Shown: one piece after another, positions 980 through 58,368 of the stretch | Position numbering within the stretch: position 1 is the stretch's first letter | Layout: every line of letters starts with the position of its first letter | Source of the DNA: Fimbriimonadaceae bacterium | GTDB lineage: Bacteria > Armatimonadota > UBA10988 | NCBI GenBank assembly: GCA_020850355.1 | Contig: JADZEX010000091.1 | Location: 35,755-99,754 of the forward strand | Reading direction: 5' to 3' | Length of the DNA: 64,000 nt | Notes under the pieces: generated by a model | The model's database searches: none | What the model was told of the DNA's origin: nothing | The model's input: only the letters and a program-made list of their open reading frames with translations | Translations under genes and position numbers: made by a program

Positions 980-1831
980 CTACGCGCGGCGCGGCTGTCC
1001 GACCTCCTGCAGCAGCGCCCGCAAAGTCTCTTCCGGCAGGCTCGAGGCGTGGCGTTCGGTCGGGAAGAGCCCGGCGCGGACCTCGTCCTGGTAGTCGGTC
1101 AGGGCCCCCTCGATGGTCTCCGCGAGGCGGGCATACTGCTTGGCGTGACGCGGCACGAAGTCGGCGTAGAGGCCCAGCAGGTCGTGCCACACCTGGACCT
1201 GGCCGTCGGTGTCAGGCCCCGAGCCGATGCCGATGGTCGGCACCGCCAGCTCGCTGGTGACCATCCGCGCCAAGGCCGCGGGAACGCACTCCAGGACCAC
1301 CGCAAAGGCTCCGGCATCGGCCAGGCGGCGCGCCTCGTCGCGGATGGCGTGGGCCTGCTCGCGCGTTTTCCCGCGGACGATCTGCTTGCCGAACTGGTAG
1401 GCCGACTGCGGTGTGTAGCCAAGATGCCCCATCACCGGGATGCCGTGCTCGACAATCGCGGCGACCACCTCGGCCATCTTGCCGCCGCCTTCCAGCTTGA
1501 CGGCCTGCACGCGCCCTTCCTGAAACAGGCGCGCCGCCGATTCCAGGCCCTGCGCCGCGTCGCGATAGCTCATGAAAGGCAGATCGCCCACGACCATCGC
1601 GCGCTGGCTGCCGCGGACTACCATCCGGCTGTGGTAGACGATGTCCTGCAGCGTCACCGGAATCGTCGAGTCGTGGCCCTGCACCACCGTGCCCAGGCTG
1701 TCGCCCACCAGAATCAGCGGCAAGCCGGCGCGGTCGACCAGTTGGGCACTGGTGTAATCGTACGCGGTGACCATCGCGAACTTCTCGTCGCGACGCTTGT
1801 AGTCGGCCAAGTCCTGCACCGTCACGCGCAT
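980..1831 (-). CDS. panB: 3-methyl-2-oxobutanoate hydroxymethyltransferase (ketopantoate hydroxymethyltransferase)
   Basis: Track ORF; translation has classic PanB motifs (MVTAYDY, LVGDSLG, GHLGYTPQS, PTIGIGSG). Confidence 0.9.
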   Translation of the reverse strand: MRVTVQDLADYKRRDEKFAMVTAYDYTSAQLVDRAGLPLILVGDSLGTVVQGHDSTIPVTLQDIVYHSRMVVRGSQRAMVVGDLPFMSYRDAAQGLESAARLFQEGRVQAVKLEGGGKMAEVVAAIVEHGIPVMGHLGYTPQSAYQFGKQIVRGKTREQAHAIRDEARRLADAGAFAVVLECVPAALARMVTSELAVPTIGIGSGPDTDGQVQVWHDLLGLYADFVPRHAKQYARLAETIEGALTDYQDEVRAGLFPTERHASSLPEETLRALLQEVGQPRRA

Positions 1832-1842
1832 CGGGGTCTCCG

Positions 1843-2229
1843 TCAGACCAGCTCGGGGCTCAGCACCGCGGGCTCCTCGATTCGGGTCACGCGGTTGTCG
1901 GCATCGACCTGCACCAACCGCGGCCGGAACTCGGTCAGCTCTTGCTCGGTCAGCCAGCCGTAGGCAATCACAATCGCCAGGTCACCGGCCGCACCCAGGC
2001 GGGCTGCGGCGCCGTTGAGGCAAATCGTCCCGCCGCCGCGCGCGCCGGGAATCAGGTAGGTCTCCAGCCGCGCGCCGGTGTTGATATTGACCACCTGGAC
2101 CTGCTCGTACGGCAGCAAGCCGGCGGCGTCCAAGAGGTCCAAGTCCACCGTCAAGCTGCCAACGTAGTTCAGGTTGGCGTCGGTGATCGTCACCCGGTGC
2201 AGCTTGGCTCGACAGAAAGCCCTCAACAT
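1843..2229 (-). CDS. panD: aspartate 1-decarboxylase
   Basis: Internal ATG at 2229 of track ORF 1843..2496 gives a 128-aa protein (MLRAFCRAKLHRVTITDANLNYVGS...) typical of PanD; GAGGA upstream; the longer N-terminal extension is low-complexity. Confidence 0.85.
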   Translation of the reverse strand: MLRAFCRAKLHRVTITDANLNYVGSLTVDLDLLDAAGLLPYEQVQVVNINTGARLETYLIPGARGGGTICLNGAAARLGAAGDLAIVIAYGWLTEQELTEFRPRLVQVDADNRVTRIEEPAVLSPELV

Positions 2230-2237
2230 CGCCGTCC

Positions 2238-2675
2238 TCACAGGTCCCGTGACAGGAACACCACCGACGGGTCCTCGTTGCCCGGCAAGTAGCGGTCGTT
2301 GAACCCGCAGATGCGGAACCCGCTCTGCAGGTAGAACTCGATCAAGGGCCCGCCCTGCGGCTCGAAGTCCATCAGCACCAGCGCGCCACGCAACTTGGCG
2401 GCGCCCAGCAGGGCCTCCAGCAACAGGCGGCCCTGGCCATGGCCGCGACGGTCGCGGCGGATCGTCAGGTCCATCACCCAGGCCACCTGGTTCCATTGCC
2501 AGAGCTGGCAGCCGCCGACGCCGATCACCTCGTGGTCGGCACTCTCCAAGACCACCCAGGCCTCTTTGCCCGACTCGAAAGCCACCAGGAAGTCGTCGGC
2601 ATTGCGCCCGGTCGCCGTGATCGAGGCGCAGGTTGCGGCGTCGTCGGCGCAGGCCGGGCGAGTGCTACTTGGCAC
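2238..2675 (-). CDS. GNAT-family N-acetyltransferase
   Basis: Track ORF; acetyl-CoA binding-type motif RRGHGQGRLLLEAL; stop lies 9 nt upstream of panD start. Start codon uncertain. Confidence 0.65.
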   Translation of the reverse strand: MPSSTRPACADDAATCASITATGRNADDFLVAFESGKEAWVVLESADHEVIGVGGCQLWQWNQVAWVMDLTIRRDRRGHGQGRLLLEALLGAAKLRGALVLMDFEPQGGPLIEFYLQSGFRICGFNDRYLPGNEDPSVVFLSRDL

Positions 2676-3039
2676 GGTAACTCCGTCCCTGGCCGAGTTC
2701 GGTCAGCTCGGCGGCATACTGCCGATAGGCCGCCGCCTTGCTGTCGTCGACCGCCGGCCGTTGCGACGGCGGCCGCTGCCGGCGACCCTCACCCAGGCGG
2801 TCCAACTCGGCCGCGTACTCCCGCACCGCCCCGCGCTTCAACGACTCCGGCGCCGCGACGCTCGGGCGACCGTGCAGCGCGTCCCGCACACCGGCCGCGC
2901 GGACCACGTCGCGCTCGTCCCAGACTCGCCAGTTGCGCCAGTCCCGCGAAACATCCGGGAGCCGACCCTCGGCGATCCAGCGCAGCAGCGTGTTCTTCGA
3001 CACGCCAATCTGCTCCGCCACCTCAGCCGTGCTGTACAC
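2665..3039 (-). CDS. helix-turn-helix DNA-binding protein (MerR/excisionase-type HTH)
   Basis: GTG start at 3039 preceded by GGAGGA; N-terminal HTH (YSTAEVAEQIGVSKNTLLRWIAEGRLP); C-terminal duplicated EYAAEL..LG.G segments; 3' end overlaps GNAT start by 11 nt. Confidence 0.5.
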   Translation of the reverse strand: MYSTAEVAEQIGVSKNTLLRWIAEGRLPDVSRDWRNWRVWDERDVVRAAGVRDALHGRPSVAAPESLKRGAVREYAAELDRLGEGRRQRPPSQRPAVDDSKAAAYRQYAAELTELGQGRSYRAK

Positions 3040-3070
3040 CAGCGTCCTCCAAGCCGTCCGCTGTCCCTGT

Positions 3071-3084
3071 CCAGGTATACCTGG
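3071..3084. promoter_or_regulatory. perfect 14-bp palindrome CCAGGTATACCTGG in divergent promoter region (candidate operator)
   Basis: Seen directly; lies about 32 bp upstream of the HTH gene start and about 145 bp upstream of the methyltransferase start, flanked by GTACAC/GTGTAC inverted repeats. Confidence 0.3.
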
Positions 3085-3227
3085 TGTACTCACACGGTAG
3101 CGCGTCGAACGCCGGCTGTCAAGGCGGCCCTGCTGCCGGGCGTCCCGCGGCCGCGCCTGCTGGGCTGGCCGGTGGGCTGTCAGAGCTGCGGCGGCGGCGC
3201 AGACTGATCGGTCGGCAGGAGCTGCTT

Positions 3228-3896
3228 GTGAGTTGGCTGACCCGGACTCTGAAGACGGCGGTGTTGCGCTGCGGCTGGGAGATCCAGCGCCGGCCGGATC
3301 TGCTGCAGATCCGCCGGGTGGGCGATCGCGCGGTGCGCGTGCCCGCGGCGCAGTTCCGCGGCGCCAGCGGCCTGCGACTGAATCTCGGCTGCGGCTTCGC
3401 CCCACTCGAGGGGTACGTCAACATCGATGTCCGCGACCTGCCCGAGGCCGACTTCATCGCGCCGGTCACCGACCTGGGTGCTTTCCCTGATGGCTGCGCC
3501 AGCGAGGTGCGGATGGACGCGGTCTACGAGCACCTCTACCACTTCGAGAGACCGCCGGCGCTGGCCGAGTGGTACCGCGTGCTGGCGCCGGGTGGCGAAC
3601 TGCACCTGAACTGGATTCCCGACTTCGAGCTGACGATCCAGCACTACCTGAACCGGCCGCCAGGCCTGACGGGCGAGTGGTTCGACCTGGCGCACGCCGC
3701 CAATCTGCTGTCCGGTCTGTACACCGCGACCGACGTGCCCGAGATGCTCCACAAGGGTCTCTTCACAAAGGCCTCGGTGCAAGCCGAGCTGGAGTCGGCC
3801 GGGTTTGTGGTCGACGCGGTCACCAACCCCTGCTACACCAACGAGCCCTACCCCGTCGCGATGTGTGCCCAGGCCCACCGACCGACCAGCCCCTGA
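3228..3896 (+). CDS. class I SAM-dependent methyltransferase
   Basis: GTG start at 3228 with AGGAG upstream, in frame with track ORF 2439..3896; motif I LNLGCGFAPLEGYVNID and Methyltransf_11-like core. Confidence 0.7.
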   Translation: MSWLTRTLKTAVLRCGWEIQRRPDLLQIRRVGDRAVRVPAAQFRGASGLRLNLGCGFAPLEGYVNIDVRDLPEADFIAPVTDLGAFPDGCASEVRMDAVYEHLYHFERPPALAEWYRVLAPGGELHLNWIPDFELTIQHYLNRPPGLTGEWFDLAHAANLLSGLYTATDVPEMLHKGLFTKASVQAELESAGFVVDAVTNPCYTNEPYPVAMCAQAHRPTSP

Positions 3897-3903
3897 GCGC
3901 CCC

Positions 3904-4014
3904 GTTTCACGTGAAACAGGCCGGGCCGACCATCACGGCGCGAGGCGGTTTCACGTGAAACAGGCCGGACCAGCCGCCACGGCGCGACGGCCGGGGTGGT
4001 GTTTCACGTGAAAC
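3904..4014. repeat. array of 3 palindromic repeats (core GTTTCACGTGAAAC) at 3904, 3948, 4001
   Basis: Seen in sequence; spacing 44 and 53 bp; first two units share extended similarity (..AGGCCGGnCC..CACGGCGCGA..). Confidence 0.9.
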
Positions 4015-4048: not shown

Positions 4049-5566
4049 GTGTCGAACCCGGCGGCCATGGGCAAGGTGTCCGAGCAACCCGTCCCCGTCG
4101 CGCCGCGCCGCGGCTGGCTCGTCGCGGCACTCCTGATGCACTTCAGTCTGGGCGGCTACTACCTGGCCCGCCTGCCGCTGTGGGGTGCGGTACCGGACGA
4201 GCCGTTGCATTACAGCACCATCAAGTACGACGCCGAGTTCTTGCGGCAGCCGGTGATCACCAACCCTCGCCCTTGGGCCGAGCCCCTGGCGGTCTACTGC
4301 TTCACCGCCGACCCCGTTGGCGCCGGTGGCCACGGGCCGCTCTACTACTGGACCTGCGTGCCGGTCTTCTGGTTGACCCGCGGGCTGACCGTCGCCGCCC
4401 AGCAGCTGGTGCTGCGCGGCTGGACGTTGTTGCTGAGCAGTCTGCTGCTCTGGTTCGCCTGGCGCGGGCTGCAGCTCGCCTGTCGCGACGACCTGCGTCC
4501 GGTCGGCCCGGCGCTCCTGGTGATCGCGTGTTGGCCGCACCGCTTGATGCTCAGCGCGGTGATTTACAACGACATCGCCGTCGCGACGATGGGGGCGCTC
4601 GCGGTCTGGCTGCTCTGGCGCGCTGCGCCGCTGGCTGGCCGGCGGCCCTGGCTGCTGGCCGGCGCGGCCTTCGGGCTGGCGTTCTTGGGCAAACGCAGCG
4701 GGCTCGTCTTGCTGCCGGGTTGTCTGCTGCTGCCCTGGCTCTGGCCCCGCCAGGAAGGCCGGCGCTGGCGGGCGGCGTGCCGCCAGAACGGTGCCTGGCT
4801 GCTGGGTGCCGCGCTGGTCGGCGGCTGGTGGCTGTGGCGCGACCTGTGGATCTACGGGCGGCTGTTTCCCACCGAGCCGGGGTTTGAGGAGCACTACACC
4901 AACGCGCTGTGGCTCTGGTTCGCACATCCGGAGATCTTCTGGTTCAAGGTCCGTCTGGCGCTCCCGGGCCTCTGGCTGAGCCTCTGGAGCCAGGTCGGCT
5001 GGGTGCCGCTGGACGTCGCCGCGTGGCGTCCCATCGCGCTGGCCCTGTACGGCAGCCTGGCGGTCGCCAGCGGCCTGACCGTGGTCGGCCTGGTCGGAGC
5101 CTGTTGCAGCCGCCGTCGCCGCTTGACGGGCGAGCCGCGCGCACTGCTCGGCAGCGCGGCGGTGATGGTGCTCGGCATGGTCTACGGGGCGCTGCACTGG
5201 GTGGTGCAGTACAGCCTGCACAACCACCAGGAGACCGGCAAGCACGCCCTGGTGGTGCTGCTGCCGCTGCTGCTGCTGGTCGTCACCGCCGGCCGCTGGC
5301 TGGCCGGCCCCGACCGCGTGGCGCCCCTCCTGGTGGCGCTGGCCGTGCTCCTGCTCAGCTTCAACGTCGCCAGCATCGTGCGGCTCGAGGGCTACCTCAT
5401 TCCGACCTGGCGCCCCCCGACGCCAAACCTCGCGGGCGAACGGGTCCGCGACCTGCCGTCCGGGGTGGCGCCGGGCATCTGGCACCGTTACCGCGTGCCG
5501 GGGACCATTCAACGCGGCGGTGCGGTGCCGCCGCCGCCGGCACCGGGGGAGGGTTGGCATGGCTGA
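4049..5566 (+). CDS. polytopic membrane protein, GT-C-type glycosyltransferase candidate (ArnT/PMT-like)
   Basis: Track ORF; many hydrophobic segments, Trp-rich, N-terminal loop with DEP motif; GGGAGG upstream. Confidence 0.45.
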   Translation: MSNPAAMGKVSEQPVPVAPRRGWLVAALLMHFSLGGYYLARLPLWGAVPDEPLHYSTIKYDAEFLRQPVITNPRPWAEPLAVYCFTADPVGAGGHGPLYYWTCVPVFWLTRGLTVAAQQLVLRGWTLLLSSLLLWFAWRGLQLACRDDLRPVGPALLVIACWPHRLMLSAVIYNDIAVATMGALAVWLLWRAAPLAGRRPWLLAGAAFGLAFLGKRSGLVLLPGCLLLPWLWPRQEGRRWRAACRQNGAWLLGAALVGGWWLWRDLWIYGRLFPTEPGFEEHYTNALWLWFAHPEIFWFKVRLALPGLWLSLWSQVGWVPLDVAAWRPIALALYGSLAVASGLTVVGLVGACCSRRRRLTGEPRALLGSAAVMVLGMVYGALHWVVQYSLHNHQETGKHALVVLLPLLLLVVTAGRWLAGPDRVAPLLVALAVLLLSFNVASIVRLEGYLIPTWRPPTPNLAGERVRDLPSGVAPGIWHRYRVPGTIQRGGAVPPPPAPGEGWHG

Positions 5567-7046
5567 GCCCGCACCGCCCTGGCCACGCCTCGTCACCTGG
5601 GCCGTGGGGCTGACGGCGCTGCTGGTGCTGCTGACCTCCACGGTGGTGCCTTTGCGCGTCGGCGATGTCTACATCTACCTGCGAGTCGCCGTGCCACTGC
5701 TGCCGCGGCTGCTGCTGCCGGCGGCGGGGTGTCTGGGTTTGCTGGCCTGGGTGCGCTGGGCGGCCCACGGCACGCGCCGGCGCGTCACGGTGGTCGTGGT
5801 GATGCTGGGGTGGTGGCTGCTGGTCGGGGTGATGGTGGCCCCGCCCGCGGGGCCGGCGGCACCCGTCACGGTGATGTATGCCGACGGCAGCAACAGCTAC
5901 CTGGCCACTGCCCACGAGGTCGGCAACGTCTTCAGTTTCGTCCGCGACTACCAACGCAGCATGCCCAGCCTGCGACTGCACGCTCAAACTCAAGCCCCGG
6001 GCGCGACGCTCGTGCATTGGCTGCCACTCCAGGCGTTGCGGCAGTCCGCGCTGTTTCAAGGGCTGCTCGAGCTCCTCGCAGCCCGGTTCGGGCGCGGCTA
6101 CACGGTGCCAGATTACGCCGTGGCCCAACTTTGGCTCAACCAGGTGCGGTTGACGCCGCCGGAGGCGGCGGCGGGGTTCTGGATCGCCGTGCTCTGGGCC
6201 GGGGCGATCGCCCTGACGGCAGGCGTGTTGCACCGCTGGGCGCTCCACCTGTCGACGCCACGAGCAGCCGCCCTGGCGACGGCGCTCTGGCTCACCGCGC
6301 CAGCCGTCTGGTGCTACACGCCGACCGTCGACGGCCTCTGGGCGCTTGGCTATGTGGTGTTCACGGCCCTCTGTTGGCGGGCCTCGTCGGTCGACTGTCG
6401 ACCGCAGCCCCTGGCCTGGCTGGGTCTCGGCGTCTTGGCTGGGTTCGGGTTGTTCTTCAACCTCGGCTATGTCCTGTTGCCGGTCTGGGCGGCTGGTCTC
6501 CTGCTAAGCCTAGGTGCGCCCGGCAGTCGCCGCTGGAGGTGCCTCGTTGCGCTGGTCGCCGGTTGGCTGCTGGCCTTGCTACTGCTCCACCTGCTGCTCG
6601 GGTACCAGGCCCTGGCGGTCGGCCTGGAGGCTGGCCGGCTGCGGGCGCACTGGTGGGGCCGCGGCCACCTGCTCTTCGCCTGCCTCAACCTCCCTGAGTT
6701 CTGGCTCGGCCTGGGAGTGCCGACGGCCGTTGTGGCCCTCGTTGCCGCCGTCCGCGGCGGGGACGCGGCAACTCGCACCATGCTGCTGCTGCTGCTGGCC
6801 CTGCAGGCCATTCTCAGCATCGCCGGCCTGGTCCGAGGTGAGACAGCTCGGATGTGGCTGTTCGCCATGCCGGTCAACTGCCTGGCCGCCACGGACTACC
6901 TCGACCGCCGCTGGCCAGACCGGACGCTGGCCGCGGACGTCCTGCTCCTGGCCGCTCAGCTCACCGCGGCTTGGGCCATGCTGCTGAACTGGTGTCCCTG
7001 GGGGACCTTTGCGCAGCCGCTCTATGAGGCCAGATTCTGGTTCTAG
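5559..7046 (+). CDS. polytopic membrane protein (second GT-C-like candidate)
   Basis: ATG at 5559 (MAEPAPPWPRL...) preceded by GGGAGGG, overlapping the upstream gene by 8 nt; multiple predicted TM helices. Confidence 0.45.
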   Translation: MAEPAPPWPRLVTWAVGLTALLVLLTSTVVPLRVGDVYIYLRVAVPLLPRLLLPAAGCLGLLAWVRWAAHGTRRRVTVVVVMLGWWLLVGVMVAPPAGPAAPVTVMYADGSNSYLATAHEVGNVFSFVRDYQRSMPSLRLHAQTQAPGATLVHWLPLQALRQSALFQGLLELLAARFGRGYTVPDYAVAQLWLNQVRLTPPEAAAGFWIAVLWAGAIALTAGVLHRWALHLSTPRAAALATALWLTAPAVWCYTPTVDGLWALGYVVFTALCWRASSVDCRPQPLAWLGLGVLAGFGLFFNLGYVLLPVWAAGLLLSLGAPGSRRWRCLVALVAGWLLALLLLHLLLGYQALAVGLEAGRLRAHWWGRGHLLFACLNLPEFWLGLGVPTAVVALVAAVRGGDAATRTMLLLLLALQAILSIAGLVRGETARMWLFAMPVNCLAATDYLDRRWPDRTLAADVLLLAAQLTAAWAMLLNWCPWGTFAQPLYEARFWF

Positions 7047-7112
7047 CCAGCCGTCGGCTCGTGCTAACATGAACCTCACGGAACCGCTGCGGCGGTTCTT
7101 GGAGCAACGGAC

Positions 7113-8420
7113 GTGCGCCAGGTTGTCGCTGCGTTGGTAGGTGGGCTGCTGGTGGCGGGGGCGAGCTGCTCGGCGGCTGCGCCGAAGAACATCATCATGC
7201 TGATCGGCGATGGTTGCGGCCAGCACCACTTCGCCGCCGGTTCGATCTACCGCTTTGGCGCTCCGGGCCGGGCGGCCCACGACCGCTTCCCAGTCAAGCT
7301 GTTCGCCTCCACCTACTCGTCCGAGAGCGGTGGCTACGATCCGGCGACGGTCTGGACCTCGCTGGCCGCGATGCAGGCCAAACCGACCGACTCCGCCGCC
7401 GCCGCCACCGCGCTGGCGACGGGCGTCAAGACCTACAACGCCGCCATCGGTGTCGGTCCGGACAAGCAGCCGCTGCCGAACATCGTCGAACGCGCCGAAG
7501 CCCGCGGCAAGGCCACGGGGGTGGTCAGCACGGTGCCCCTCTCGCACGCCACGCCAGCCGGCTTCGTGGCCCACCAGCCGAGTCGCAGTTCGTATGCGGC
7601 GATCGCCAGCGAGATGATCCTGCGGAGCGCCGTGGACGTGATCATCGGCGGCGGCCATCCGGACTTCGACGCCGCCGGCCGACCCGCGGCGAAGGCCGAC
7701 CCGAACTACGTCGGCGGGGCTGAGACCTGGGCCCAGGTCCAAGCTGGCCGGGCTGGCGCCGATGCCGACCGCGACGGCCGGCCGGATCCCTTCACGCTGG
7801 TCACTGCCCGCTCGGCCGTCGTCAAGTTGGCCAGCGGCCGCACGCCGCGCCGCCTTCTGGTGGTACCACCGGTGCGAGAGTCCTGGCAGGCCGGTCGGCC
7901 GCAGGGCAAGCCGCGCCGGCCGTTCGATGACCCGCTCCTGGCCGCCGTCCCGACCCTCGCCGAAGCCACCGCCGCGGCGCTCAATGTGCTCGACGACGAC
8001 CCCGACGGCCTGTTCCTGATGGTGGAGGGCGGCGCCATCGACTGGGCCTCGCACAACAACGACGCCATCCGCATGGTCGAGGAAGTGATCGACTTCCAGC
8101 AGGCCATCGAGCAGGTGATCGCCTGGGTCGAACAGCGCAGCTCGTGGGAAGAGACGCTGGTGATCGTCACCGCCGACCACGAGACCGGCTGCCTGACCGC
8201 CCCCGATGGCCAGTTGGCGACGGCCCTGCGCGGCCACCGCGGCGAGCTGCCGGCGCTGCTCTGGAACAGCAAGGGCCACACCAACAGCCTGGTCCCGGTC
8301 TATGCCCGCGGCGCCGGCAGCGAGCGGCTGACCGCCGCGGCGACCCGCCGCGATCCGGTGCGGGGCGCCTACCTCGACAACACCGACCTCGCCAAGGCGA
8401 TGTTCGCCGCCTGGCGCTGA
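7113..8420 (+). CDS. alkaline phosphatase (PhoA family), secreted
   Basis: Track ORF; signal peptide; motifs DSAAAATALATGVKTYN and ADHETG typical of PhoA-type alkaline phosphatases. Confidence 0.8.
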   Translation: MRQVVAALVGGLLVAGASCSAAAPKNIIMLIGDGCGQHHFAAGSIYRFGAPGRAAHDRFPVKLFASTYSSESGGYDPATVWTSLAAMQAKPTDSAAAATALATGVKTYNAAIGVGPDKQPLPNIVERAEARGKATGVVSTVPLSHATPAGFVAHQPSRSSYAAIASEMILRSAVDVIIGGGHPDFDAAGRPAAKADPNYVGGAETWAQVQAGRAGADADRDGRPDPFTLVTARSAVVKLASGRTPRRLLVVPPVRESWQAGRPQGKPRRPFDDPLLAAVPTLAEATAAALNVLDDDPDGLFLMVEGGAIDWASHNNDAIRMVEEVIDFQQAIEQVIAWVEQRSSWEETLVIVTADHETGCLTAPDGQLATALRGHRGELPALLWNSKGHTNSLVPVYARGAGSERLTAAATRRDPVRGAYLDNTDLAKAMFAAWR

Positions 8421-8435: not shown

Positions 8436-8544
8436 CTGTTTCACGTGAAACAGCGCTGCACTGGCCCCGCCTGCCCACCTGCTGTTTCACGTGAAACAGC
8501 TCCCGACGGAGCGCGCCACCGACGGTCTGTTTCACGTGAAACAG
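8436..8544. repeat. array of 3 palindromic repeats CTGTTTCACGTGAAACAG at 8436, 8482, 8527
   Basis: Seen in sequence; periodicity 45-46 bp; positions confirmed by CFT-stop/FHVKQ artefact ORFs in the track. Confidence 0.9.
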
Positions 8545-19303: not shown

Positions 19304-19427
19304 CTGTTTCACGTGAAACTCGCGCCGGGCCCCGCCGCCCCCGCGCTGTTTCACGTGAAACAGACAGCCGCCGCGATGGCCCGCAGCGATCCAGCAGCCG
19401 GGCTGTCGCCCGTTTCACGTGAAACAG
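19304..19427. repeat. array of 3 palindromic repeats at 19304, 19346, 19412
   Basis: Seen in sequence between the NERD gene and the homocysteine methyltransferase gene. Confidence 0.9.
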
Positions 19428-30308: not shown

Positions 30309-30423
30309 GTGTTTCACGTGAAACACCGGCCCCGCCGGAGCCCAGCCGGCTGCGCCCGGGCCTCCGTTTCACGTGAAACAGCGTTTGGCGCCGGGCCGGT
30401 GCGAGCTGTTTCACGTGAAACAG
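30309..30423. repeat. array of 3 palindromic repeats at 30309, 30366, 30406 (first extends to 24-bp perfect palindrome CCGGTGTTTCACGTGAAACACCGG)
   Basis: Seen in sequence between two minus-strand genes. Confidence 0.9.
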
Positions 30424-43834: not shown

Positions 43835-43850
43835 GTTTCACGTGAAACAG
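43835..43850. repeat. single palindromic repeat GTTTCACGTGAAACAG between convergent genes
   Basis: Seen in sequence. Confidence 0.9.
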
Positions 43851-45827: not shown

Positions 45828-45944
45828 GTGTTTCACGTGAAACAGCGGTCCGCGTGGTCGGCCGGCTCGCGATGCTGCGGGGTGTTTCACGTGAAACAGT
45901 GCGCCCCACGCCGGCCGCGGTGCCGCGTGTTTCACGTGAAACAG
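45828..45944. repeat. array of 3 palindromic repeats GTGTTTCACGTGAAACAG at 45828, 45882, 45927
   Basis: Seen in sequence in divergent intergenic region. Confidence 0.9.
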
Positions 45945-58232: not shown

Positions 58233-58368
58233 CTGTTTCACGTGAAACAGCACCAGACCCCGGCCGCCAAGGTGGCGCTGCCGCGGCGGCGGGGCCAATC
58301 CGGTGAACCCCGGCGCTCCGGGCGCCGTGTTTCACGTGAAACAGCGCGAGGTGTTTCACGTGAAACAG
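58233..58368. repeat. array of 3 palindromic repeats at 58233, 58327, 58351 (last two only 24 bp apart)
   Basis: Seen in sequence between convergent genes. Confidence 0.9.

Follow-up and report, generated by a model that had tools for sequence, protein, structure and literature searches.

An HTH-GNAT gene pair heading pantothenate genes in Armatimonadota and Phycisphaerae: a candidate CoA-responsive repressor

A gene for a small helix-turn-helix (HTH) protein and an overlapping gene for a GNAT-fold protein stand together behind a conserved, putative operator in two phyla, and the pair is a candidate for a so far undescribed feedback switch in the synthesis of coenzyme A precursors. We propose that HTH represses its own operon and that the co-translated GNAT, as a predicted (acetyl-)CoA-binding protein, provides the signal input. 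We hold this proposal tentatively, with somewhat less than even confidence. As a part of it, HTH, GNAT, panD and panB would form one operon with a sigma-70-type promoter (TTGACA, 17 nt, TACCGT).

In what follows, the window is the whole stretch of Fimbriimonadaceae DNA that was analysed, 64 kb long. The order HTH-GNAT-panD-panB on its minus strand is confirmed when read from the sequence. The features that matter here are these:

3117-3122, minus strand: -35 hexamer TTGACA, read from the sequence and conserved across lineages
3094-3099, minus strand: -10 hexamer TACCGT, 17 nt after the -35, a putative promoter element
3084-3091, minus strand: putative operator box 1, GAGTACAC, the first RRGTAYAC box
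3071-3084, no strand: putative operator box 2, in the palindrome CCAGGTATACCTGG, with its core AGGTATAC at 3075-3082
3046-3050, minus strand: ribosome-binding site GGAGG of the HTH gene, 6 nt upstream of the GTG at 3039
2665-3039, minus strand: HTH gene, 124 aa, GTG start at 3039, TAG stop at 2665-2667
2782-2838, minus strand: HTH tail motif, copy 1, K68-R86, KRGAVREYAAELDRLGEGR
2683-2739, minus strand: HTH tail motif, copy 2, K101-R119, KAAAYRQYAAELTELGQGR
2238-2675, minus strand: GNAT gene, 145 aa, GTG start at 2675, TGA stop at 2238-2240
2235-2239, minus strand: ribosome-binding site GAGGA of panD, overlapping the GNAT stop codon, TGAGGACGGCGATG
1843-2229, minus strand: panD, pyruvoyl-dependent aspartate 1-decarboxylase, 128 aa, ATG at 2229
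980-1831, minus strand: panB, ketopantoate hydroxymethyltransferase, 283 aa

The 11-nt overlap of HTH and GNAT that the sequence-only reading had reported is borne out (GTGCCAAGTAG), and its distance of 9 nt from the GNAT stop to the panD ATG has to be corrected to 8 nt (2230-2237). The HTH and GNAT proteins are identical to NCBI MCC7495564.1 and MCC7495563.1, respectively. PanD matches PF02261 (E=8.5e-46) and exceeds the cut-off of 106 bits of TIGR00223 with 145.7 bits; its residues K9, H11, Y22, G24-S25, R54, T57, Y58 and N72 align with E. coli PanD, and the cleavage site Gly24-Ser25, the catalytic residues and the family model together place it among the PanDs. PanB is recognised by PF02548 (E=1.2e-104) and TIGR00222 (311.6 bits).

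Linkage of HTH and GNAT to panD was checked in related genomes and proved to be conserved: the four-gene cassette is kept in about ten Armatimonadota lineages, with differing outer flanks. We found 21 homologues of GNAT with identities of 69-100%, and all those of at least 70% identity lie within such cassettes. Across cassettes the identity is 72-82% for GNAT, 66-78% for PanD and 64-78% for PanB, that is, GNAT is as conserved as the two biosynthetic enzymes. In both phyla HTH and GNAT overlap in every lineage, by 4-20 nt. Every HTH-GNAT pair found in the lineages examined of the two phyla is directly upstream of panD or of the gene for another protein, which we call X; the gene directly 3' of GNAT, 8-18 nt away, is always one of these two, and panB can be absent. 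There is no link of the pair to mobile elements in any locus examined. As a separate observation on the flanks, the upstream side of two of the loci (L007/L008) carries a Y1_Tnp gene and repeat elements.

The second phylum is Planctomycetota. In its Phycisphaerae a 40%-identical GNAT, together with an HTH protein whose domain is 56-59% identical, heads X-panB or X alone. X is an uncharacterised, highly conserved protein of 450 aa that occupies the slot of panD and is unrelated to PanD. It has no sequence match in Pfam, NCBIfam or the PDB, and its remote relatives from a search of 1.8 billion proteins are likewise without Pfam families. Its AlphaFold2 model is all-alpha and poor (pLDDT 58), and a Foldseek search with it returned nothing with E<0.4. 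In one locus (L061), HTH and GNAT are gone except for a decayed 3' remnant of GNAT, and X is intact. Such joint loss of the two genes with retention of X fits a dispensable regulatory unit. The comparison across phyla marks X as a candidate for a missing function of the pantothenate pathway in Phycisphaerae. That HTH and GNAT are a two-protein acetyl-CoA/CoA repressor and that X is, in addition, a new beta-alanine-supplying enzyme is a combination that we regard as doubtful.

Upstream of HTH, a -35 hexamer of the form TTGACA, TTGACT, TTGACG or TTGACC, a spacer of 16-17 nt and a TAnnnT-like -10 are present in all lineages compared, including L062. In orthologous loci the -10 reads TATGCT, GATACT, TATCAT, TATACT, TAAGCT or CATAAT, and its position relative to the -35 is kept. 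A generic promoter scan left the operon promoter unflagged, because its -10 is weak (three of six positions match), and gave one poor terminator-like site, inside panD. Our assignment of the promoter is made because of its conservation across lineages and not because of the generic scan.

The palindrome CCAGGTATACCTGG, suggested by the sequence-only reading as a candidate autoregulatory operator, is perfect and does lie at 3071-3084, with 31 nt between it and the start codon of HTH. By itself it has no significance beyond chance in a count of such palindromes over the window, where there are 33 perfect ones of 14 nt against about 15 expected from a first-order Markov model, 22 of the 33 belonging to an unrelated GTTTCACGTGAAAC repeat. 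The argument for an operator therefore rests on the GTAYAC boxes. RGTATACY occurs once in the 64 kb, with 0.08 occurrences expected. In each of the orthologous loci examined, the A+T-rich core of the palindrome is found again at this place in the promoter, and a GTATAC-centred palindrome is at the same place in L001, L004, L007, L010, L015, L019, L023 and L017. What is conserved is a pair of RRGTAYAC boxes at or just downstream of the -10 of the TTGACA promoter, in the -10/+1 region. In the window the two boxes, 9 bp apart, have no mismatch, and none of 500 shuffles is as good. Pairs exactly 9 bp apart are found in all ten lineages scored (by eye also in L062); mismatches summed over the ten lineages are 13 at 9 bp vs 31-50 at spacings 6-15, and at each locus at most 1.6% of shuffles equal the observed pair. 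Phylogenetic footprinting thus gives the suggestion of an autoregulatory operator strong support, with the paired boxes as the putative operator and HTH as the protein that would bind it.

HTH is the kind of protein that could do so. Its residues 1-57 (2869-3039) are a winged HTH of the MerR type, and what remains is a variable linker and a tail. It matches HTH_17, MerR_1 (PF13411, E=3.7e-6) and MerR (PF00376) in Pfam, as well as the excisionase model TIGR01764, and the solved structures nearest to it are the DNA-binding domains of NmlR/MerR proteins 5e01, 5d90 and 5d8c (E about 6e-6, residues 2-49). In an alignment of homologues all 19 invariant residues fall within positions 1-47, the DNA-binding domain. 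The homologues are 90-158 aa long, and past residue 57 they have only the variable linker and a 19-residue motif. Neither a C-terminal effector domain nor a long dimerisation helix was found with Pfam and the alignment of homologues; the shortest homologues have 90 aa and therefore have no room for an effector domain. The aligned Armatimonadota homologues have the motif of the tail, K-x6-Y-A-x-[DE]-L-x-R-L-G-x-G-R, either once or twice, and its duplication is seen also in L010, L015 and L019. Phycisphaerae homologues have a single degenerate version, AAxSMxxF[GA]xG. The motif may be a docking site for GNAT.

The GNAT protein matches PF00583 and PF13508, and its AlphaFold2 model (pLDDT 89) has the GNAT fold. 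Together with this fold it has the acetyl-CoA-binding beta4-alpha3 motif that goes with membership in the superfamily. The acetyl-CoA loop RDRRGHGQG is encoded at 2430-2456, and within the pyrophosphate-binding motif R-x-x-G-x-G the residues R77, G78, G80 and G82 are invariant in both clades. The clades differ in charge, with a pI of 4.7-5.3 in Armatimonadota and 9.0-9.3 in Phycisphaerae. They also differ in the motif FY115LQNGF: the Armatimonadota proteins have it and look complete as catalysts, and the Phycisphaerae proteins have Leu in place of Tyr115.

The mechanism that we have in mind would be as follows. HTH would bind both RRGTAYAC boxes, and since these are directly downstream of the -10, bound HTH would block RNA polymerase and so repress transcription. 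HTH has a DNA-binding domain and no ligand-binding domain, and we propose GNAT, which is made from the overlapping reading frame, as the signal input. GNAT would bind the end product of the pathway (acetyl-CoA or CoA) and would then either dock on the tail motif or motifs of HTH (K-x6-Y-A-x-D-L-x-R-L-G-x-G-R) or acetylate HTH. If so, occupancy of the operator, and hence synthesis of beta-alanine and pantoate, would track the CoA pool. Several considerations weigh on this proposal. Given the difference in GNAT charge between the clades and the loose similarity of the tail motif, a conserved interface between tail and GNAT is not obvious. The Armatimonadota GNATs, which look catalytically complete and whose nearest relatives in sequence and fold are true enzymes with amino-acid-like amines or protein N-termini as substrates, favour an enzymatic role. 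Finally, what stays constant directly downstream is PanD or X and not panB, which fits equally well an action of GNAT on that protein or on its product.

Two alternative roles of GNAT were considered. GNAT might be an independently arisen analogue of PanZ that binds PanD or X when it carries (acetyl-)CoA and controls maturation or activity of that protein, the role of HTH being confined to autoregulation; we think this unlikely. A precedent exists in Enterobacteria, where acetyl-CoA-bound, GNAT-fold PanZ feeds the level of CoA back onto PanD (PMC4410942, PMC3398536); the logic of our own proposal has its precedent there as well. The CoA-binding fold of our GNAT and its fixed place 8-18 nt upstream of PanD or X, even where panB is missing, agree with such a role. 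So does the unusually arginine-rich CoA loop of the PanD-linked GNATs (RRDRRG), which resembles the PanD-contacting loop Leu66-Gly76 of PanZ, LRVREVTRRRG. However, this loop is the only place where homology to PanZ is seen. A profile comparison of GNAT with PanZ/PanM, for which the E. coli PanZ query sequence was verified against 4cry_B, gave an hhalign probability of 1.5% with 23 aligned columns, those of the CoA loop, and PanZ is absent from the 48 profile matches of GNAT to the PDB at E<=10. PanM/PanZ is confined to Gammaproteobacteria, and PanDs outside the PanM-containing members of that class cleave themselves without a helper (PMC4537548). The hydrophobic, invariant tail KAIPVQVA of PanD is the core of the PanZ interface (PMC4410942), whereas in nine GNAT-linked loci the end of PanD past ...NRVxxxxRPxV differs both in length and in sequence, with no such invariant tail. 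A single GNAT family would, moreover, need to recognise both PanD and X, which are unrelated to each other; X is retained in L061 despite the loss of GNAT; and the conserved overlap of HTH with GNAT would be left without an explanation. For the earlier idea that GNAT is a PanZ/PanM-like factor, the linkage to panD has stood, homology to PanZ is confined to the CoA loop, and in Phycisphaerae the pair precedes a protein unrelated to PanD.

Alternatively, GNAT might be an ordinary enzyme that belongs to the beta-alanine branch or guards it, N-acetylating a small amine (beta-alanine, aspartate, a toxic analogue or a side product are the candidates) or a protein N-terminus, with HTH as an independent repressor. 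The best sequence matches of GNAT are streptothricin, arsinothricin and phosphinothricin acetyltransferases, amino-acid N-acetyltransferases and RimI, the closest folds are acetyltransferases of the N-alpha and amino-acid types, and the Armatimonadota clade has kept both the CoA loop and the FY115 motif whole. Nevertheless, Pfam and NCBIfam return generic GNAT matches only, with scores far below the equivalog cut-offs (26 bits vs 420, for example), and therefore no substrate can be assigned; Tyr115 has become Leu in the Phycisphaerae GNATs; and we know of no step in pantothenate synthesis that requires acetylation. Distant relatives of 27-39% identity have a motif FRICGFNDRY and are encoded on low-GC contigs of archaeal- or CPR-like character, two of which are from archaeal MAGs (Bathyarchaeia, Woesearchaeota). 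No HTH or pan genes are near these relatives. They stand alone, as ordinary enzymes would, and without such neighbours they are uninformative on a function linked to pan genes. Nor would an enzyme of this kind explain why translational coupling to a DNA-binding protein is conserved or why the two genes were lost together in L061, and we regard such an enzyme as improbable.

A toxin-antitoxin pair was the alternative offered by the sequence-only reading, and it finds no support now; the pair would be of type II, with GNAT as toxin and HTH as antitoxin, and would have been inserted upstream of panD by chance. Its layout is present: the first gene encodes a small, basic DNA-binding protein that has a C-terminal tail, the genes overlap (by 4-20 nt), and conserved GTAYAC boxes form a palindromic putative operator at the promoter, by which the pair may be autoregulated in the manner of GNAT/RHH pairs such as KacAT (PMC6698736). 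However, known GNAT toxins have DUF1778/RHH antitoxins as partners (PMC9177977), whereas HTH is of the MerR type, matches no DUF1778 model (Pfam, E<=0.1) and is an excisionase-type HTH in NCBIfam. The Armatimonadota GNAT is acidic (pI 4.7-5.3) and conserved at the level of the housekeeping genes PanD and PanB, and the pair has a single context, co-directional and tightly packed with such genes in every lineage examined of two phyla, rather than a stand-alone, patchy and mobile distribution. Chains of TacT, AtaT, KacT or ItaT are absent from the PDB profile matches of GNAT (E<=10) and from its best fold matches, and PADLOC has no match for GNAT. Remoter relatives of HTH (P0055, P0056) are found in phage-like contexts, among integrase/resolvase genes and small ORFs, without GNAT. 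Taken with this evidence, a toxin-antitoxin pair is very improbable.

Two further candidates were rejected: an RNA leader or riboswitch, as no Rfam family reaches its gathering score within the window (which has no tRNAs either), and a role in anti-phage defence, for which PADLOC matches only a generic HTH (mad1) and neither GNAT nor X.

A functional analogy to PanZ, in the form of CoA-responsive control of the beta-alanine/pantothenate branch, is the direction that we prefer; its point of action would most likely be transcription, through HTH, rather than maturation of PanD. Pantothenate biosynthesis was without any identified regulation until PanZ (PMC4410942). In literature searches neither a transcription factor of panD/panB nor an account of an HTH-GNAT module turned up. 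In the combined reading that we called doubtful above, no earlier case would be known in which the end product feeds back on de novo pantothenate synthesis at the level of transcription, the GNAT fold would have been recruited independently a second time to sense CoA for the beta-alanine branch, and X would be a new kind of beta-alanine-supplying enzyme. If GNAT is the sensor, the pair would be a natural transcription switch responsive to acetyl-CoA/CoA and of practical interest; PanZ has already been engineered as an acetyl-CoA biosensor (bioRxiv 10.1101/2023.12.31.573774). With a conserved pair and a clearly defined putative operator in two phyla, these suggestions are directly testable with three small proteins and 60 bp of DNA.

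We know other systems that share parts of this arrangement. The closest relatives of GNAT in sequence and fold are the N-alpha-acetyltransferases RimI/Ard1/Naa and the amino-acid-type antibiotic N-acetyltransferases (OrfE, NAT/STAT/Sat, PAT/ArsN/YncA), which have the same size (about 145 aa) and the same motifs. Identity to RimI/Ard1/Naa and to the antibiotic N-acetyltransferases is only 14-27%, however, with scores far below cut-offs, and we know of no acetyltransferase of these types that has an overlapping HTH gene and heads pan genes. PanZ/PanM (E. coli YhhK) is likewise a small GNAT-fold protein with an acetyl-CoA/CoA loop and a functional tie to aspartate decarboxylase, and in both cases there is a possible route for feedback of the CoA pool on pantothenate synthesis. 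As far as we know, panZ does not neighbour panD and is not accompanied by an HTH gene. Our GNAT differs from PanZ in being co-translated with a DNA-binding protein and encoded immediately upstream of panD; the pair also precedes a protein other than PanD in Phycisphaerae, and the host phyla are different.

With the MerR relatives NmlR, TipAN, RacA and BldC, HTH shares the N-terminal winged HTH, and like BldC and RacA it is without the long dimerisation helix and the effector domain. Closely spaced, repeated boxes in the putative operator are another likeness to the MerR family. Unlike the arrangement in MerR, they are at or downstream of the -10 of a promoter with a 16-17-bp spacer and not inside a spacer of 19-20 bp. 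Such a position at -10/+1, together with the optimal spacer of 17 bp, points to repression by occlusion rather than to activation of the MerR type by DNA distortion. The tail of HTH, with its family-specific repeated motif, and its constant pairing with GNAT are further differences from the MerR relatives.

TacAT, AtaRT and KacAT resemble our pair in that the DNA-binding protein comes first and has a C-terminal tail, in the overlap of the genes and in the promoter palindromes, through which autoregulation may operate here too. They are unlike it in having RHH/DUF1778 proteins in place of a MerR-type winged HTH, our GNAT is not TacT-like in its PDB profile and fold matches, and our module is within a longer biosynthetic operon with the same pan context in every lineage examined. 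Since the KacAT toxin-antitoxin complex is a DNA-binding repressor (PMC6698736), the mechanism of a co-repressor made of HTH and GNAT can usefully be modelled on it.

In the window, whose G+C content is 71%, four minus-strand genes are packed into a tight chain, and family scans upheld all four assignments: a small DNA-binding protein (HTH), a GNAT-fold protein (GNAT), PanD and PanB.

2665-3039, minus strand: HTH, 124 aa; GTG start, GGAGG 6 nt upstream
2238-2675, minus strand: GNAT, 145 aa; GTG start within the HTH stop region, 11-nt overlap GTGCCAAGTAG
1843-2229, minus strand: panD; ATG 8 nt past the GNAT stop, GAGGA overlapping that stop
980-1831, minus strand: panB

This is the layout of the sequence-only reading, chain and 11-nt overlap included, with the sole correction that GNAT and panD are separated by 8 nt and not 9. 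In the PanD, both the cleavage site Gly24-Ser25 and the catalytic residues are present. GNAT and HTH are identical to MCC7495563.1 and MCC7495564.1, from a Fimbriimonadaceae (Armatimonadota) metagenome-assembled genome. Downstream of panB, a minus-strand ORF with a HEVAH zinc-protease motif (1-~920), by eye a putative M48-type peptidase, continues past the window's left edge; it lies outside the conserved cassette because other lineages carry different genes there. On the plus strand, an ORF divergent from the HTH promoter (3228-3896) is weakly methyltransferase-like (Methyltransf_11, E=5e-4), and two large ORFs have a weak PMT_2 glycosyltransferase match (4049-5566) and no Pfam match (5520-7046).

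A word-indexed search found 21 GNAT homologues (69-100% identity), all in Armatimonadota-type assemblies. The linkage of HTH and GNAT to panD, proposed as something to look for in relatives, is kept: the order HTH-GNAT-panD-panB is present in every Armatimonadota locus with enough sequence, and the outer flanks vary by lineage (ornithine/DAP decarboxylase, MutS plus Y1 transposase, pyrophosphatase, esterase, SmpB, peptidase S9). Compared with the window proteins, the homologues are 72-82% identical for GNAT, 66-78% for PanD, 64-78% for PanB and 53-64% for HTH; GNAT, ranging alongside PanD and PanB, is therefore under housekeeping-grade constraint. In L009, whose assembly belongs to the L007 lineage, an assembly error or a real frameshift has apparently broken the HTH frame (4675-5008), the N-terminal 48 residues of HTH being out of frame with the called 87-aa product; GNAT, panD and panB are intact there.

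The palindrome CCAGGTATACCTGG, at 3071-3084 as originally placed, had been suggested as an operator. Its length alone is not meaningful: perfect 14-nt palindromes occur 33 times in the window (~15 expected under a Markov model), and 22 of them are one unrelated repeat. It is made meaningful by its uniqueness, its position and the conservation of its core and boxes. Its A+T-rich core, RGTATACY, is found at a single place in the 64 kb (0.08 expected), a promoter with two boxes offset by 9 bp.

3117-3122, minus strand: -35 element TTGACA, 17 nt before the -10
3094-3099, minus strand: -10 element TACCGT, as read from that strand
3084-3091, minus strand: box 1, GAGTACAC, downstream of TACCGT
3075-3082, minus strand: box 2, AGGTATAC, inside the palindrome

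Ten lineages were compared over the 110 nt that precede the HTH start: the window, L001, L004, L007, L010, L015, L019 and L023 from Armatimonadota, and L017 and L060 from Phycisphaerae. All ten have a TTGAC(A/T/G/C) -35 with a 16-17 nt spacer and two RRGTAYAC boxes at a spacing of 9 bp. Mismatches to RRGTAYAC, summed over the lineages, number 13 at spacing 9 and 31-50 at all other spacings from 6 to 15, and in every one of these loci at most 1.6% of shuffles equalled the observed box match. Extended perfect palindromes are found at the operator in several lineages (GGTGAGTATACTCACC in L007, GTGAGTATACTCAC in L015, GGGTATACCC in L023), and another Phycisphaerae locus, L062, has the same layout as judged by eye. 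The remaining intergenic sequence upstream of HTH is not conserved among the lineages compared. With a unique core, a promoter position and boxes paired in every lineage, the palindrome holds up as an operator candidate. By sequence comparison, the boxes are a classical phylogenetic footprint of a putative protein-binding site over the -10/+1 region, the place expected of a repressor site.

The unrelated repeat, often extended to TGTTTCACGTGAAACAG, accounts for two thirds of the window's 14-nt palindromes.

3904-4014, 8438-8542, 19306-19425, 30311-30421, 43835-43848, 45830-45942, 58235-58366: 22 copies of the perfect palindrome GTTTCACGTGAAAC, mostly triplets, ~45 nt apart

Arranged in this way, the copies resemble a REP-type repeat, or else arrays of a binding site with a CACGTG core. 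In L007, three copies of another repeat (GAGCCGCATGCGCTGCCGCCGGAGCGGCGGCGGTACAATT...; 4280-4520, spacing 66-75 nt) lie between a Y1_Tnp gene, REP-associated tyrosine transposase-like, and the HTH promoter, probably as REP elements beside their RAYT.

HTH homologues led to a second clade, Phycisphaerae/Sedimentisphaerales according to the source names of the matches. Here HTH (96 aa, DNA-binding domain 56-59% identical) overlaps the gene of a 145-aa GNAT with 40% identity to that of the window, and an uncharacterised 450-aa protein, X, begins 10-11 nt after GNAT, in the panD position.

L017 4736-6085, also L018: X, in the panD slot behind HTH-GNAT
L059, L060, L061, L062 at 5001-~6380: X

panB comes after X in L017/L018 and L059 but is missing from that position in L060 and L062; in L062 its place (6450-7271) is taken by a second acetyltransferase (273 aa; GNAT and YoaP-like domains). 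The X family comprises at least 623 proteins of 445-460 aa (65-99% identity; Phycisphaerae/Sedimentisphaerales) with invariant Cys and His residues. X has no match in Pfam, NCBIfam or PDB, and its remote relatives are Pfam-less as well. The structure prediction, all-alpha, is not usable (pLDDT 58), and Foldseek with that model gave no match at E<0.4. X is a candidate non-orthologous replacement of aspartate decarboxylase. In L061, X stands alone with neither HTH nor GNAT; directly upstream (4940-5000) are a decayed GNAT 3' remnant (...LFYGYNL*) and the usual AGGAG ribosome-binding site. The pair has been lost jointly in this lineage, X remaining intact.

More distant GNATs (27-39% identity) share a C-terminal FRICGFNDRY motif; they are on low-GC contigs, two of which belong to archaeal MAGs (Bathyarchaeia, Woesearchaeota), and neither HTH nor pan genes are close by. 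Farther HTH relatives have integrase- or resolvase-rich surroundings, without GNAT.

HTH begins with a MerR-type winged HTH (residues 1-57); the alignment has 19 invariant residues, every one of them between positions 1 and 47. Past a variable linker, the tail carries one or two copies of the motif K-x6-Y-A-x-[DE]-L-x-R-L-G-x-G-R (K68-R86 and K101-R119 in the window, a single degenerate copy in Phycisphaerae). No room is left for an effector-binding domain. GNAT has a confidently predicted standard GNAT fold (AlphaFold2, pLDDT 89) with an acetyl-CoA loop (R77, G78, G80, G82) invariant across both clades. The overall pattern is a conserved operon with a conserved promoter-operator, in which a sensor-less DNA-binding protein is always translationally coupled to a protein of CoA-binding fold.

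Our preferred suggestion, held at somewhat less than even confidence, is that HTH is an autorepressor and GNAT its (acetyl-)CoA input. HTH would occupy both GTAYAC boxes and repress its own operon; GNAT would bring the signal: acetyl-CoA or CoA, with which the pathway fed by the operon ends. It may do so as a co-repressor docked on the tail motif, or by acetylating HTH, possibly at the conserved tail lysines or at invariant K15 of the recognition helix. KacAT-type toxin-antitoxin complexes (PMC6698736) provide a mechanistic precedent for one half of this idea and PanZ.AcCoA (PMC4410942) for the other.

Alternatively, GNAT could control PanD and X post-translationally, as PanZ does. PanD or X, not panB, is its invariant neighbour, and its CoA loop is arginine-rich. 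Nevertheless, we consider this unlikely. Homology to PanZ is absent: hhalign of the GNAT profile against a PanZ sequence that matches 4cry_B over all 127 residues gave 1.5% probability and aligned the CoA loop alone. Moreover, PanDs outside PanM-containing Gammaproteobacteria are self-processing (PMC4537548), PanD tails are variable, a single GNAT family would have to work with two unrelated partners, and X has survived GNAT loss.

Equally doubtful is that GNAT is a true acetyltransferase, acting on small molecules or N-termini, that guards the beta-alanine branch. Its closest relatives by sequence are such enzymes (streptothricin, arsinothricin and phosphinothricin acetyltransferases, amino-acid acetyltransferases, RimI), all family matches being far under family cut-offs, and the Armatimonadota GNATs, in which FY115LQNGF is conserved, keep intact catalytic motifs; but Tyr115 is Leu in Phycisphaerae, and the coupling to HTH would go unexplained. 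A toxin-antitoxin pair, the other early proposal, fits the gene layout but is very improbable, as the partner is of the wrong type, TacT, AtaT and KacT are absent from the sequence and fold matches of GNAT, the context is fixed and housekeeping, and the conservation level speaks against it.

Returning to the autorepressor, the evidence from comparison is clean and the idea can be tested directly; the mechanism is one that we infer, and both components are common folds. The open-access literature, to which this weak negative is confined, yielded no HTH-GNAT module and no transcription factor for panD/panB. Separately, HTH and GNAT are members of known superfamilies. Their combination lacks what defines PanZ/PanM, GNAT/DUF1778 toxin-antitoxin modules or full-length MerR regulators; we rate it as a putative MerR-type, domain-minimal repressor that has a GNAT as partner and is dedicated to the pantothenate branch.
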